Position numbers and translations under genes: made by a program. 64,000 nt of DNA, taken from the NCBI GenBank assembly GCA_016287815.1, contig JAEEWW010000001.1, forward strand, positions 5,842 to 69,841, given 5' to 3'. The notes beneath the pieces were generated by a model that was not told the origin of the DNA, ran no database searches, and worked only from the letters and a program-made list of their open reading frames with translations. The stretch comes from Treponema sp. (GTDB lineage Bacteria; Spirochaetota; Spirochaetia; Treponematales; Treponemataceae). Shown piece after piece: positions 8,199-22,786 of the stretch; position 1 is the stretch's first letter; every line of letters starts with the position of its first letter.

Positions 8199-8271
8199 GC
8201 CCTTATAGCTCAGTTGGTAGAGCGCAGCCATGGTAAGGCTGAGGTCTGCGGTCCGAGTCCGCATGGGGGCT
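8199..8271 (+). tRNA. tRNA-Thr(GGT)
   Basis: Cloverleaf: acceptor GCCCTTA/TGGGGGC, anticodon arm CAGCC-ATGGTAA-GGCTG, T-arm TGCGG-TCCGAGT-CCGCA; CCA not encoded. Confidence 0.93.
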
Positions 8272-8306
8272 CGTTACTAAGATTTAACATGTTTTAGGAG
8301 ATAGAT

Positions 8307-8483
8307 ATGGCAAGTAAGAAGAAAGGTGCAGTTGAAATTATTGCTTTGCAGTGTTCAGAATGCAAACGCAGAAATTACACAACTTACAAGAATCGTAAGA
8401 ATATTCAGGGTAAACTTGAATTAAATAAGTATTGTCCTTTTGACCGCAAACATACATTGCACAAAGAGACAAAAGTAAAATAA
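8307..8483 (+). CDS. rpmG: 50S ribosomal protein L33
   Basis: Not in the ORF track; translates to [26 protein letters not shown]...[18 protein letters not shown]; SD AGGAG. Confidence 0.97.
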
Positions 8484-8531
8484 TTTAATTAGTGTAAGAA
8501 TCTGTCTGATTTTTGCAGACAGTTTTTATAT

Positions 8532-8604
8532 AGGTCAGTAGTTCAGTTGGTAGAGCATCGGTCTCCAAAACCGAGGGTCGTGGGTTCGAGTCCTACCTGG
8601 CCTG
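8532..8604 (+). tRNA. tRNA-Trp(CCA)
   Basis: Acceptor AGGTCAG/CTGGCCT, anticodon arm TCGGT-CTCCAAA-ACCGA, TTCGAGT T-loop; canonical position before secE. Confidence 0.97.
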
Positions 8605-8640
8605 TTATTTTTATTCTTGTAGTGAATAGTTGAGGGTGTT

Positions 8641-15100: not shown

Positions 15101-15676
15101 TATGAACTTCCTGTATTCCAGTCTCCAAGCCAGAAGCAGATTGCAGACAAGCTTGAAGAAGCTGGTCTTTCACGTGATTGTAAACAGATTGTACATGATG
15201 GACGTACAGGTGAACCGTTCGTAAACCCAATCTTTGTTGGTGTTATCTATTACCTTAAACTTCATCACCTTGTTGATGATAAGATGCATGCACGTTCAAC
15301 AGGTCCGTACTCACTTGTTACACAGCAGCCTCTTGGTGGTAAAGCACAGTTTGGTGGTCAGCGTCTTGGTGAAATGGAAGTTTGGGCACTTGAAGCTTAC
15401 GGTGCAGCAAATACATTACAGGAAATGATGACAATCAAGTCTGATGATATGAACGGTCGTTCAAAGATTTACGAATCTATCGTAAAAGGTGATCCTGCAA
15501 CTCCAGCTGGTGTTCCGGAATCATTCAACGTACTTGTTCAGGAAATGCGCGGTTTGGCACTTGATTTTACAATCTACGATGCTAAAGGAAAACAGATTGC
15601 TCTTACAGAGCGTGACCAGGAATTGATTGATAAAGCAGCTTCTGGTTTTGATAAGGAGTCTTCTACTAATGCGTGA
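12119..15676 (+). CDS. rpoB: RNA polymerase beta subunit
   Basis: [29 protein letters not shown]; start set at ATG 12119 after AGAGG. Confidence 0.99.
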
Positions 15677-20532: not shown

Positions 20533-21003
20533 ATGGGTAGACATAAGAAATCAATTAATCGTCCGATTTTGCCGGATGCAAAATATAACAGCGTCGTAAT
20601 TTCTAAATTTGTTACACGTATGATGCTCGATGGAAAAAAAGACACATGTGTAAAAATTATCTATGAAGCTTTGGATAAATTAAAGTCAAAGACTGATAAG
20701 GATCCTCTTGAAGTTTTCCTCAAGGCTCTTGATAATGTAAAACCTGTAGTTGAAGTAAAATCACGCCGTGTTGGTGGTGCTACATATCAGGTTCCGGTAG
20801 AAATCCGTGATTCCCGCCGTGAAGCACTTGCAATGCGCTGGGTTATTACTGCTGCCCGCTCAAGAAGCGGTCACGGTATGGCTGATACACTTGCTCTTGA
20901 ATTGTTTGATGCTTATAACAATACTGGTACTGCATTCAAGAAGAAGGAAGATACACATAAAATGGCTGAAGCTAACAAGGCTTTTGCTCACTATCGCTGG
21001 TAG
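20533..21003 (+). CDS. rpsG: 30S ribosomal protein S7
   Basis: [27 protein letters not shown]. Confidence 0.99.
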
Positions 21004-21019
21004 GTTTTATGTATTAAAG

Positions 21020-21069
21020 AATGGCTGTCCTGAAGTTGTTGAAACTTTGTATGGACGGCCATTTTTTTT
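21020..21069 (+). terminator. Intrinsic terminator after rpsG
   Basis: AATGGCTGTCC/GGACGGCCATT stem plus T-run. Confidence 0.8.
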
Positions 21070-21090
21070 GCTTGTTTTTAATTCAGGCTA

Positions 21091-21119
21091 TTGCATTTAT
21101 TTTTAAAAAAAGGTATAAA
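21091..21119 (+). promoter_or_regulatory. Putative sigma-70 promoter of the tuf-S10 transcript
   Basis: TTGCAT, 17 bp, TATAAA, immediately after the rpsG terminator. Confidence 0.6.
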
Positions 21120-21125
21120 TAGGTT

Positions 21126-21598
21126 CACTGCAAATTCGCCTTTTTATGTATTTTGCAGAAGGGTTCTTTGAGAGTCAGGCGAACACAGGATGTTCGGTAC
21201 AGCCGTAAAGTTAACCGAAAGGTTTTCAGGTTTGTACGGCCCATTATGTTGGTTATTCTTGTCGTTGACAAAGATAATATATTTGGTTTGACATTGTGGG
21301 TTTTTGACGGGTTCATGCTTATGAACTTAAGGCTCATGGATGCCAGACCAGTCGTCAGACAGTAGGTTTGATGGTGATAGGTGGTTCCGGCCAATGCATT
21401 CCGAAATTATGGAATGTTTTGTGAGATTCAATCTCTTTTCCGTATTCCAAAAATCACATCAAAACTGTCAAATTAAACTAAGTGTGTATGCGAATGTGGC
21501 TTTTTTCAGCTGAAGATTGCTCATTCTGGCTTAAAGTGCATCACATAAAATAAAGTGTGTCGGCCTGTTAGAAAATTAAAGCCGACAAGGAGAAAAAC
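21126..21598 (+). ncRNA. Unassigned large structured RNA (5' leader of tuf or stand-alone ncRNA)
   Basis: At least 10 complementary segments including nested long-range helices; lies between the promoter and the tuf SD; no credible ORF. Confidence 0.5.
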
Positions 21599-22786
21599 AT
21601 GGCAAAGGAGAAGTTCGTTAGAACTAAACCCCACATGAACGTTGGAACCATTGGTCACGTTGACCATGGTAAGACTACTCTTTCAGCAGCTATCACTATG
21701 CACTGTGCAAAAAAATACGGTGACAAAGCTCTGAAGTATGACGAAATTGATAACGCTCCAGAAGAAAAGGAACGTGGTATTACAATCAATACTCGTCACC
21801 TTGAGTATCAGTCAGACAAGAGACACTATGCTCACATCGACTGCCCGGGACATGCTGACTATATTAAGAACATGATTACTGGTGCTGCTCAGATGGATGG
21901 AGCTATTCTTGTAGTTTCTGCTCCTGATTCAGTTATGCCACAGACACGTGAACACTTGCTTCTCGCTCGTCAGGTAGGTGTACCGAAGATTATCGTATTC
22001 TTGAACAAAGTTGACCTTGTTGACGATGCAGACCTTCTTGAATTGGTAGTTGAAGAAGTAAAAGATACTCTTAAAGAATATGGTTTCTCAGAAGAAACAC
22101 CAATCATTAAAGGTTCAGCATTCAAAGCTTTGGCTGATGGTGCTACAGCTGATGATACAAAGTGTATCGATGAACTTCTTGAAGCTATGGATACATGGTT
22201 TGATGATCCAGTTCGTGATGATGCAAAACCATTCTTGATGCCAATTGAAGACATCTTCACAATTTCTGGTCGTGGTACAGTAGTAACAGGACGTATTGAA
22301 CGTGGTGTAGTAAATATGAACGATGAAGTTGAAATCGTTGGTATTCGTCCTACAGCAAAATCAACTGTTACTGGTATTGAAATGTTCCAGAAGACACTTG
22401 ATCAGGGTATTGCCGGTGATAACGTTGGTATCCTTCTTCGTGGTGTTGAAAAGAAAGATGTTGAACGCGGTCAGGTTCTTGCAAAGCCGGGTTCAATTCA
22501 CCCGCACACAAAGTTCGAAGCTCAGATTTACGTTCTTTCAAAAGAAGAAGGTGGTCGTCACAGCCCATTCTTCTCTGGCTATCGTCCACAGTTCTATTTC
22601 CGCACAACAGATATTACTGGTACAGTAAATCTTGAAGCTGGAACAGACATGGTTAAACCAGGTGATAACGTAAAGATTATCGGCGAATTGATTCACCCGA
22701 TCGCTATGGATGAAGGTCTTAAGCTTGCTATCCGCGAAGGTGGTCGCACAATCGCTTCTGGTCAGGTAACAAAGGTTATTGAATAG
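21599..22786 (+). CDS. tuf: Elongation factor Tu
   Basis: [21 protein letters not shown]. Confidence 0.99.

Follow-up and report, generated by a model that had tools for sequence, protein, structure and literature searches.

A family of large structured RNA leaders precedes tuf in rumen and gut Treponema

In Treponema sp., tuf is preceded by a large structured RNA. We analyzed a window of 64,000 nucleotides (i.e., the whole stretch of DNA under study), in which this non-coding leader of ~470 nt extends from 21126 to 21598, and found that it is a well-supported new RNA family with ~130 members, ~59% identity and dense covariation, carried by a Treponema clade of the rumen and gut. It very probably constitutes a cis-acting structured RNA family, and we lean slightly towards its working in cis as a regulatory switch. 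Our best reading, to which we would give about an even chance, is that of a leader regulating the tuf-S10 operon in cis, with its folding controlled by a factor. The leader fronts one of the most highly expressed operons of abundant rumen fibre-degrading Treponema and unites in one RNA an invariant core, a boxA-like element and two competing helix sets; its alignment has already reached a depth that suffices to create an Rfam entry and to design experiments.

The leader has its own transcription signals, downstream of those of the preceding operon. The rpsG gene ends at 21003 and the tuf ORF occupies 21599-22786 (+ strand, as do all the features described here). Between them, the rpsL-rpsG intrinsic terminator (21021-21069), made of the stem ATGGCTGTCC/GGACGGCCAT (21021-30/21053-62) and a run of eight U (RNAfold -26.8 kcal/mol), is followed by a sigma-70-type promoter (21091-21119) composed of TTGCAT (21091-96), a 17-nt spacer and TATAAA (21114-19), from which transcription probably starts near 21126. 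This promoter had been pointed out in an earlier note made from the sequence, whose coordinates and sequences we found to be correct; its TTG and TATA do not vary in 11 relatives and are conserved across 102 copies. In five of eight metatranscriptome assemblies, RNA contigs begin at 21137-21143, and the RNA depth is zero over 20954-21136 in four runs. The leader is present in 16 rumen metatranscriptomes (each holding at least 81% of its sampled words), and contigs run unbroken from 21137-43 to 21615-17, i.e., to +17 of tuf. The RNA thus covers the leader and continues into tuf, rather than starting close to the tuf ATG. No intrinsic terminator was found between the leader and tuf, and no U run follows any leader hairpin. 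Since the leader is not closed by such a terminator and the contigs continue into tuf, regulation in cis of the tuf-S10 transcript, which the earlier note had put forward, is the best reading. Downstream of the leader, the gene order is tuf-rpsJ-rplC-rplD-rplW-rplB..., tuf being the first gene of the operon.

The association with tuf is strict. The ~130 homologues, collected from Treponema genome bins and from rumen and gut metagenomes, all end exactly at the tuf ATG; their median length is 471 nt, with sizes ranging from about 400 to 540 nt. The leader had been described as occupying the position of fusA between rpsG and tuf. Only the junction with tuf is a constant feature, and the rest of this description is incidental: in several relatives rpsG lies 1-4 kb off, and even at these loci leader and tuf are adjacent. 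A fusA remnant was also considered and rejected, tblastn with a partial EF-G (379 aa) giving only noise (E = 9.6). A block of the 3′ domain matched 120 metagenome contigs, each time upstream of tuf. The covariance model of the core, a hairpin formed by helices P9, P7 and P6 (21331-21392; 86 distinct copies), gave exactly one match per locus and no other in the window; no further copy was found in the ~1.3 Mb made up of the window and the flanking DNA of the scanned loci, a search space biased to tuf neighbourhoods. The core was also recovered in intergenic regions of termite-gut Treponema, whose EF-Tu is ~75% identical. A leader peptide or other protein-coding role was rejected: the distances separating invariant blocks differ by 1-2 nt (13, 14 or 15 nt from GGUGGU to UUCGAA). 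Indels in the leader copies fall in hairpin loops.

No known family accounts for this RNA. At gathering thresholds, Rfam 15, whose families include T-box, ribosomal-protein leaders, tRNA, tmRNA, RNase P, 6S and OLE/GOLLD/ROOL/raiA, gave no match to the leader, the only matches in the window being two tRNAs located elsewhere; at E <= 10, nothing credible appeared in 20950-21650, and among 16 relatives no family recurred within the leader. The Rfam 15 search thus bears out the view that this is not a tmRNA, RNase P, SRP, T-box or riboswitch, and the absence of a match, the strong covariation and the transcription into tuf bear out the broader one of an undescribed structured RNA tied to tuf. Our search found no literature on a bacterial tuf leader or cis-regulatory RNA, on a spirochaete boxA, or on the balance between EF-Tu and ribosomal-protein synthesis in spirochaetes. 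Three motif-based candidates were also discarded. The GGUGGUnCCGG sequence looked T-box-like; no T-box model matches it, no terminator is present, and its GGUGG pairs internally with CCA-ACC. The GGAUG motif, a potential CsrA site, is not conserved and reads AGAUG or AAAUA in other clades. The UGAUGA...CUGA strands, finally, misfit the geometry required of a K-turn or box C/D.

The case for a conserved structure rests on comparison with relatives because the folding of the single sequence exceeds that of its shuffles only modestly (z = -2.26 on the + strand, -2.81 on the - strand). In our arm test, each arm is matched with its own partner and with permuted ones and the resulting duplex energies are compared; the outcome is backed by RNAalifold and by pair counts. 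Over the supported helices that the earlier note had listed, z ranges from -5.8 to -21, with negative controls at +0.5 and +1.5. Unbiased covariation analysis, by a G-test with average-product correction, ranked 21 column pairs at the top, all of them Watson-Crick stacks, and RNAalifold detected compensatory changes in 28 of the 29 pairs of the 5′ domain. On the model-based alignment of the 86 distinct copies, the whole model is 92.4% paired (83.0% in shuffles) and reaches a covariation score of 0.429, against 0.244 in shuffles, none of the 500 scoring as high. Altogether, ~14 helices maintain their pairing through compensatory changes; for the near-invariant P7, Pa and Pb, these changes are few or none. 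Nearly all the helices of the earlier note, its 17-bp long-range helix included, belong to this conserved set. That note had named four outcomes that would speak against it, namely a known Rfam family, no folding excess over shuffles, no conservation or covariation among relatives, and a tuf transcript starting near the ATG; all four were looked for and none was found. Indeed, the folding excess is present, if modest, and the regions upstream of tuf are strongly conserved, with covarying helices.

The 5′ domain begins with P1 (21128-21158), a hairpin of variable sequence (CTGCAAA/TTTGCAG in the window; z = -14.5) that sits at the position of boxB in rRNA leaders. It is followed by an invariant boxA-like block, GGGUUCUUUGAGAG (21161-21174; near-invariant over 102 copies), whose GGG can pair with CCC at 21240-42 to form P2; the flanks of this GGG and of this CCC covary (z = -7.3). 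Next come the hairpin P2b (CGAACA/TGTTCG, 21180-21196; z = -21.4, six of seven pairs compensated in RNAalifold) and P3, which surrounds the hairpin P4 (21197-21237), provides some of the top covarying column pairs and carries a conserved internal loop, CCGUAAAG / UUUCAGG. For P3/P4 (GCCGTA/TACGGC with the AACC/GGTT hairpin), z is about -21 and all 13 pairs are compensated in RNAalifold. P5 (21240-21300) is a hairpin with a conserved CCGUUGG loop, whose inner stem has nine of nine pairs compensated and whose extension joins CCC and its flank (21240-49) to GGG and its flank (21291-21300; z = -12.2). This extension and P2 cannot coexist. The conserved columns at 21298-21307 form a GGGUUUCUGA-type block that nearly repeats the boxA-like one, and the hairpin Px (GTTCAT/ATGAAC, 21311-21326; z = -9.2) comes next. 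All the helices proposed for this region, i.e., CTGCAAA/TTTGCAG, CGAACA/TGTTCG, GCCGTA/TACGGC, the hairpin at 21241-21300 and GTTCAT/ATGAAC, were thus recovered, with z from -9.2 to about -21. The competition of TTTGACGG for CTGTCAAA, proposed alongside them, found no direct support; the adjoining upstream segment (21270-97) gives a weak signal against the same partner (z = -3.9).

The block that follows P1 resembles a boxA. Within it, GUUCUUUGAGA (21163-73) matches GYUCUUUAANA at 10 of 11 positions, this consensus being taken from the literature (PMC5725501); by our own arithmetic, the chance of such a match is ~0.002 per leader. The median distance from the -10 hexamer to the start of the block is 39 nt, P1 lying ahead of the block, and UUCUUUGAGAG has no covarying partner, pairing being possible for the GGG alone, in P2. 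In rRNA operons, boxB, boxA and boxC sit just after the promoter, and the Nus factors bound to boxA have been proposed to aid the formation of long-range helices (PMC10250234); putative boxA sites are also known upstream of rpsJ or of rpsJ-containing operons in gamma-proteobacteria (PMC5725501). On the other side, the leaders of the termite group carry UUUUUGAAA, and the C that is critical for the E. coli boxA is absent at the equivalent position. A boxA function is a serious possibility that we would nevertheless place below even. If it were true, a boxA reading GUUCUUUGA would be expected in the rRNA leaders of the same genomes; rRNA genes, in which we sought this native boxA, do not occur in the window or in 200 loci.

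The 3′ domain (21482-21546) folds into an invariant three-way junction, UUCUGGCUUAAAGUGCA, formed by Pa (GUGUGU/ACACAU), Pb (UGC/GCA) and the variable Pc (21492-98/21520-26; z = -19.8, three of four variable pairs compensated). Pa, Pb and a mini-hairpin of this domain show no sequence variation among the copies. An A/U-rich single-stranded linker (21547-21557; mean unpaired probability ~0.8 across the family) leads to the last hairpin, TGTCGGC/GCCGACA (21558-21587), which had been noticed earlier as abutting the tuf Shine-Dalgarno sequence and which covaries (z = -15.7), with no U run after it. The region is completed at 21588-21601 by the Shine-Dalgarno sequence, AGGAG at 21588-92, and by the start codon of tuf at 21599-21601; AAGGAG and ATG are invariant. 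We found no covarying helix that sequesters the Shine-Dalgarno sequence or connects the ribosome-binding site with the switch; the region of the 3′ strand of the long-range helix P10, described below, gave z from -0.6 to +1.7 against the 3′ domain, the linker and the Shine-Dalgarno hairpin. RNAalifold also proposed that UUCUUUG pairs with CAAAGGA in the codons of tuf; this pairing was rejected since a synonymous GCA-to-GCT change breaks it in several relatives without compensation.

This architecture bears on two other explanations. The leader could be a stable trans-acting non-coding RNA, co-made with tuf and then cut off, the last hairpin remaining as a protective 5′ end of the tuf mRNA. Its size and ornate fold do recall large non-coding RNAs, its boxA-like element is of the kind seen in rRNA operons, the linker that leads from the three-way junction to the last hairpin is single-stranded and A/U-rich, and the leader was assembled from many small metatranscriptomes. 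However, the RNA contigs are continuous from ~21138 to 21615 over the supposed cleavage site, which is still compatible with partial processing, and the element has never been seen apart from tuf, so that we regard such a release as unlikely. The second explanation is that of a constitutive high-expression device, in which Nus antitermination, RNase-protective 5′ structures and an A/U-rich enhancer beside a strong Shine-Dalgarno sequence would act together and the alternative helices would be mere folding steps. The tuf gene is among the most highly expressed genes, the Shine-Dalgarno sequence and the AUG are mostly unpaired in the predicted ensembles (unpaired probability ~0.5-0.75), next to an abutting hairpin, and the boxA-like block would fit here too. 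Yet ~14 helices, invariant internal loops and a three-way junction far exceed the usual needs of a stabiliser, and the core sequence is kept across distant lineages, which points to a specific binding partner; we judge a purely constitutive role improbable.

The core itself is built from three helices. P9 (21331-34/21389-92; z = -7.9 for its arms) encloses P7, in which CC-A-(GA bulge)-CC pairs with GGUGG (21342-45 and 21348-49 with 21380-85; 97.1% paired), and P6, a weak, G·U-rich helix (GUCGUC/GAUGGU, 21351-56 with 21370-75; 99.8% paired). Single-sequence thermodynamics disfavours P7 (pair probability 0.05-0.1). The long-range helix of 17 bp seen in the earlier note, P10 (21358-78/21453-69), covaries (z = -9.5) and is formed by complementary sequences that are lineage-specific: its duplex energy is -11.08 kcal/mol with its own partner versus -8.92 kcal/mol with permuted ones, and 72% of its duplexes reach -9 kcal/mol or lower versus 45% of the permuted ones. 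P6 and P10 are mutually exclusive because 21370-75 is common to both; P10 also crosses P7 and P9, and would make a pseudoknot if both formed. Between the strands of P10 lie P8 (GCATTCC/GGAATGT, 21395-21418; 94.9% paired, eight of nine pairs compensated, z = -18), with its conserved C-G and G·U closing pair and its AAAUUA loop, and the variable hairpin GAGAT/ATCTC (21423-21435; z = -5.8), two further helices of the earlier note that comparison sustains. Nearby, UCCGU (21439-21443) is conserved in the rumen and termite groups, and no partner was found for it, its pairing with 21298-21312 (GGGUUUCUGAYGG) giving z = -0.3. By contrast with these two hairpins, the third that had been placed inside P10, TGGT-tccg-GCCA, is not conserved: its bases belong to P7 and P9. 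The cloverleaf-like four-way junction is consequently not a conserved feature.

Two pairs of mutually exclusive helices, P2 versus the P5 extension and P6 versus P10, thus have comparative support for each of their members. The four switch combinations lie on average within ~1-3 kcal/mol of each other; for the window sequence, the P10 state is ~10 kcal/mol more stable than the core-hairpin state. Thermodynamic coupling between the two switches was considered and none was seen. Such a design would also suit a metabolite or alarmone riboswitch, with the core as an aptamer whose ligand (for example (p)ppGpp, GTP/GDP or an ion) stabilises P6 against P10 and thereby tunes the operon. The core is compact and near-invariant, its internal-loop bases are conserved and kept across distant Treponema, it contains one of two mutually exclusive helices, and its fold is not thermodynamically favoured alone, as expected of a ligand-stabilised one. 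We nevertheless give this explanation little credence: the leader was seen upstream of tuf only, in one copy per locus (in a search biased to tuf neighbourhoods), no Rfam riboswitch matches it, and neither a terminator nor a Shine-Dalgarno-sequestering helix is there to serve as an expression platform. Far less credible still is a tRNA mimic closed by P10 that would bind EF-Tu for autogenous feedback, an idea of the earlier note that draws on the regulated gene being tuf and on P10 and two of the three enclosed hairpins being real, but against which stand the silence of the Rfam tRNA model and of ARAGORN in the leader (in the window ARAGORN found only tRNA-Thr and tRNA-Trp genes, at 8199 and 8531), the bases of TGGT/GCCA forming the different, conserved P9-P7-P6 hairpin, and the lack of a free aminoacylated CCA end, a requirement for tight EF-Tu binding.

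Under the cis-regulatory reading that we prefer, early local helices, P2 and the weak P6 within the invariant core hairpin, would fold first during transcription and could later be displaced by the P5 extension and P10, long-range helices of greater stability. A factor binding the invariant core (CCA-RA-CC/GGUGG and the internal loops) would hold the early fold and so decide the final structure, and with it the operon's output. An operon-encoded ribosomal protein or Nus factors are the likeliest candidates for this factor. The former comes first, the model being the action of L4 on the S10 leader of E. coli; as effector, a ribosomal protein is a tentative proposal, more doubtful than probable. 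Besides, the invariant GGGUUCUUUGAGAG that follows the 5′ hairpin may load NusB/NusE(S10), which would render RNA polymerase Rho-resistant over ~470 untranslated nt and might also act back on S10. Once found, the core's partner would show how the translation apparatus is regulated in a whole phylum-level lineage.

A more specific version of this cis-regulatory reading arises from a resemblance to rRNA. E. coli 23S 1606-1623, CCAAACCGACACAGGUGG, resembles the core, a likeness that is weak after allowing for multiple testing; the stretch includes the stem-loop H49a, with a CC/GG stem that is borne out by the Rfam LSU consensus structure. The fraction of shuffled rRNAs with a match is 0.19, 0.06 and 0.0015 for the loose, middle and termite-type patterns, respectively, all of which were chosen after viewing the rRNA. 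Smith-Waterman comparison of the conserved blocks with rRNA gave nothing meaningful, only trivial 9-10-mers. Matches of 7-mers to rRNA are expected by chance. A similarity to the L1 stalk (GAUAGGUGG) was set aside as not significant, its strands being in reverse order. In the ribosome, extensions of uL2, uL22 and bL34 lend stability to the surroundings of H49a (PMC9687910), and uL23 is near H49 (PMC11087509). One may imagine a bistable co-transcriptional switch over tuf-S10, and possibly spc-alpha, that would be organized as an rRNA operon leader in miniature. It would combine a boxB/boxA module, where Nus factors including the operon's own S10 would load and then direct the long-range folding, with a core mimicking 23S H49/H49a and capturing uL22, uL2 or uL23; taken as a whole, this combination has a low probability in our eyes. 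If it were true, two feedback loops would reside in one RNA, which has no described counterpart. The partner of the core, if identified, could also reveal a new case of mimicry of rRNA, or of an mRNA controlled by Nus factors.

Several known systems share parts of this organization. OLE, GOLLD, ROOL, HEARO and raiA are of similar size, with many conserved helices and junctions, whereas the Treponema RNA is a strict 5′ leader joined to a coding gene, restricted to Treponema and without an Rfam match. Riboswitches, T-boxes and attenuators likewise have competing early and late helices around a conserved sensor-like core; the Treponema leader, however, has neither a terminator/antiterminator pair nor a leader peptide, occurs in a single genomic context and is far larger than typical riboswitch aptamers. 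In the E. coli thrU-tyrU-glyT-thrT-tufB operon, too, a strong promoter drives an EF-Tu gene together with structured RNA lying upstream of it. There, four upstream tRNAs are cut out of the transcript, while the Treponema leader is devoid of tRNA-like elements and its RNA contigs reach into tuf without a break. Another structured 5′ leader with several hairpins, the L4-regulated S10 leader of E. coli, precedes rpsJ, rplC, rplD, rplW and rplB, and a logic of product feedback is presumed common to both. Nevertheless, the Treponema leader precedes tuf and not rpsJ, matches no Rfam leader and contains no attenuator terminator or regulatory helix overlapping the ribosome-binding site. Its length is ~470 nt, compared with ~170 nt in the E. 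coli case, and it exceeds the size of known ribosomal-protein leaders several-fold. As for boxA, the survey of Baniulyte et al. 2017 (PMC5725501) covered up to 50 nt from gene starts, whereas the Treponema block lies ~430 nt from the start codon. The rRNA leaders, together with the boxA of suhB and rpsJ, offer the same order of elements, i.e., a promoter, a hairpin, a single-stranded GYUCUUU-type block and a long structured untranslated RNA with long-range helices, and rpsJ, which encodes NusE, is the second gene of the Treponema operon.

We show that the region upstream of tuf (window 21126-21598) is a genuine structured leader of the Treponema tuf-S10 operon. It is expressed, is unusually large and had not been described before. 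A cis-acting switch is its best-supported mechanism, for which we infer the effector and the output step. On the + strand, tRNA-Thr, tRNA-Trp, nusG, rplK, rplA, rplJ, rplL, rpoB, rpoC, rpsL and rpsG (3' end 21003) precede a gap of 595 nt, followed on the same strand by tuf (21599-22786), rpsJ, rplC, rplD, rplW and rplB. The mechanical rpoC ORF (TTG, 15627) overlaps the rpoB end (15676) by about 50 nt (window 15627-15676), and the true start is probably further downstream. In many bacteria, tuf lies between tRNA-Thr and tRNA-Trp. Here, tRNA-Thr(GGU) and tRNA-Trp(CCA) are 260 nt apart (window 8199-8605), upstream of nusG-rplKAJL-rpoBC, and tuf is relocated to the front of rpsJ. The gap opens with a strong intrinsic terminator (+ strand, stem 21021-30/21053-62 and an eight-U run, -26.8 kcal/mol), followed, as the earlier note had read it, by a new promoter (+ strand, TTGCAT, 17-nt spacer, TATAAA, 21091-21119). 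No hairpin with a U-run was found from this promoter to the tuf Shine-Dalgarno. A coding region is rejected, the spacing between invariant blocks varying by 1-2 nt, and the leader region has no similarity to EF-G. The leader has no match in Rfam 15, in agreement with its description as an unrecognised RNA, and we found neither a tuf leader nor a spirochaete boxA in the literature.

Between 81 and 100% of the sampled leader words are present in 16 rumen (cattle, sheep) metatranscriptome runs from at least 8 studies; the contigs show presence and continuity and speak to neither processing nor abundance. In five of the eight assemblies examined, a single contig extends without mismatch from 21137-21143 to 21615-21617, so that a transcript does cover the region, as opposed to a tuf start close to the ATG. 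In four of these five runs, depth is zero over the terminator and promoter (20954-21136). This fits transcription that begins near 21126, from the predicted promoter, and passes through the leader into the tuf coding region. The other three assemblies reach further upstream, which could reflect read-through or DNA carry-over. In run X18, an RNA contig passes directly from 21416 to 21582 and so omits 165 nt, and its loose end derives from the leader of another family member; this is most likely an assembly chimera of related species and not a processed form.

Using ribosomal protein S7 as query against species-representative genomes, we recovered gut and rumen Treponema bins whose rpsG-tuf gap (580-712 nt) is homologous to that of the window across nearly its full length. 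Scanning metagenomes for a single invariant 22-mer added 120 contigs. The 102 distinct full-length leader copies have a median length of 471 nt (range 391-539) and a mean pairwise identity of 59%. In profile searches, all copies terminate precisely at the tuf ATG, and in several contigs (L169, L193, L089, L086, L191) rpsG is 1-4 kb from the leader-tuf unit, other DNA being inserted between them. Hence, the element is tied to tuf, and not to the "fusA position" by which it had first been defined. In two close relatives by S7 (L006 and L007), no tuf was found in the 4 kb that follow rpsG. One contig titled Paratractidigestivibacter, an actinobacterium (L004, CAVIQW010000002.1), carries a Treponema-type rpsG-leader-tuf locus (S7 identity 85%) and is probably mis-binned or mislabelled.

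Folded alone, the leader exceeds its shuffles only modestly (z = -2.26 on the + strand, -2.81 on the - strand); the case for a leader RNA therefore rests on comparison with relatives. A structure-free G-test with average-product correction was applied to all alignment column pairs, and the top 21 pairs are all Watson-Crick-compatible antiparallel stacks. With RNAalifold on tool-made alignments, 28 of 29 pairs of the 5' domain present compensatory changes; of the 3'-domain helices, the outer ones are without any variation and Pc covaries. Because variable hairpins align poorly, we added an arm test, in which each arm is paired once with its own partner and once with partners from other family members and the duplex energies are compared. 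It gave z = -15 to -21 for established hairpins, -14.5 for P1 (21128-58), -12.2 for the P5 extension, -9.5 for P10, -9.2 for Px (21311-26), -7.9 for P9, -7.3 for P2 and -5.8 for a variable hairpin, against +0.5 and +1.5 for negative controls. Nearly all helices of the earlier note are thus real, including its 17-bp long-range helix (P10, 21358-78/21453-69), whose own partner beats permuted ones. The exception is the note's TGGT-tccg-GCCA hairpin, whose bases belong to P7 and P9. The proposed tRNA mimicry is not supported. The covariance model R1 (core and P8) re-aligned 99 copies (86 distinct), with 92.4% of paired cells against 83.0% in shuffles and a covariation score of 0.429 against 0.244 (0/500 shuffles as high; slid controls 0.05-0.14). 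Pairing reaches 99.8% in P6, 97.1% in P7 and 94.9% in P8.

The best-conserved part of the leader is a core hairpin absent from the first list of helices. It consists of P9 (21331-34/21389-92), an asymmetric loop, P7 (CC-A, RA bulge, CC; with GGUGG), a 1-by-4 internal loop and P6 (GUCGUC 21351-56/GAUGGU 21370-75), a weak, G·U-rich helix. Termite-gut Treponema have shorter tuf leaders, in which the core (CCAAACCGAUCAU...AUGRGAUAGGUGGAAC) is the only recognisable part, and R1 matches there are weak (E = 0.03-1.7) and fall precisely in the intergenic regions of these leaders. P7 is not favoured in single-sequence ensembles, which suggests that an agent beyond the RNA itself may stabilise the core fold.

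Two pairs of mutually exclusive helices had also been missed. Bases 21370-75 are common to P6 and P10, and the CCC at 21240 has two alternative partners, the upstream GGG of a boxA-like block (P2) and the downstream GGG 21298 (P5 extension), flanking bases covarying in both pairings. The alternatives are on average near-equal in energy (at most 1-3 kcal/mol apart); in the window sequence, the fold with P10 is favoured over that with the core hairpin by about 10 kcal/mol. No thermodynamic coupling was found between the two switches.

Two further elements had escaped the first reading. The invariant boxA-like block GGGUUCUUUGAGAG stands directly behind P1, downstream of the -10 hexamer (median distance 39 nt), and agrees at 10/11 positions with the boxA consensus GYUCUUUAANA (PMC5725501). 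Further downstream, an A/U-rich single strand separates an invariant three-way junction (UUCUGGCUUAAAGUGCA) from a covarying hairpin abutting the Shine-Dalgarno. The invariant blocks GGGUUCUUUGA (21161-21171) and GGGUUU(U/C)UGA (21298-21307) are near-repeats competing for one CCC segment (21240-42), and could be two sites for one protein. The P3/P4 internal loop (CCGUAAAG/UUUCAGG, 21204-21210 and 21224-21230) and the P5 loop (CCGUUGG, 21262-68) are almost invariant; either could be a further candidate site for protein binding or tertiary contact. In termite-gut Treponema (L014, L016-L020), the Shine-Dalgarno lies inside a different conserved hairpin, GUGU(G)CC...AAGGAGGACAC, with which the leaders end just upstream of tuf; the output module may thus differ between lineages despite the common core.

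We propose that a factor binding the invariant core would fix the leader fold during transcription. The canonical bacterial S10 operon encodes uL2, uL22 and uL23, and rplB and rplW are confirmed in the window. The core resembles E. coli 23S 1606-1623 (CCAAACCGACACAGGUGG), a stretch that includes stem-loop H49a; the Rfam LSU consensus structure bears out its CC/GG stem. The H49a region is stabilised by uL2, uL22 and bL34 extensions (PMC9687910), and uL23 lies near H49 (PMC11087509). The outer bases have a third strand as their partner in 23S rRNA, not each other, and the loop adenines are not kept in the leader. The resemblance is no more than suggestive, with shuffle fractions for the match of 0.19, 0.06 and 0.0015 by pattern tightness, for patterns drawn after the fact.

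Loading of Nus factors at the boxA-like block is probably involved as well. A stretch of about 470 untranslated nucleotides would be open to Rho. In rRNA operons, boxA-bound Nus factors render RNA polymerase resistant to Rho and are proposed to aid the formation of long-range helices (PMC10250234). On the other hand, the block lacks the critical C in termite-group relatives. In rRNA operons, boxB, boxA and boxC directly follow the promoter (PMC10250234); the Treponema block is likewise near the promoter, behind the P1 hairpin. In gamma-proteobacteria, putative boxA sites were reported upstream of rpsJ or rpsJ-containing operons (PMC5725501). In the tuf-S10 operon, rpsJ is the second gene, behind the leader and tuf.
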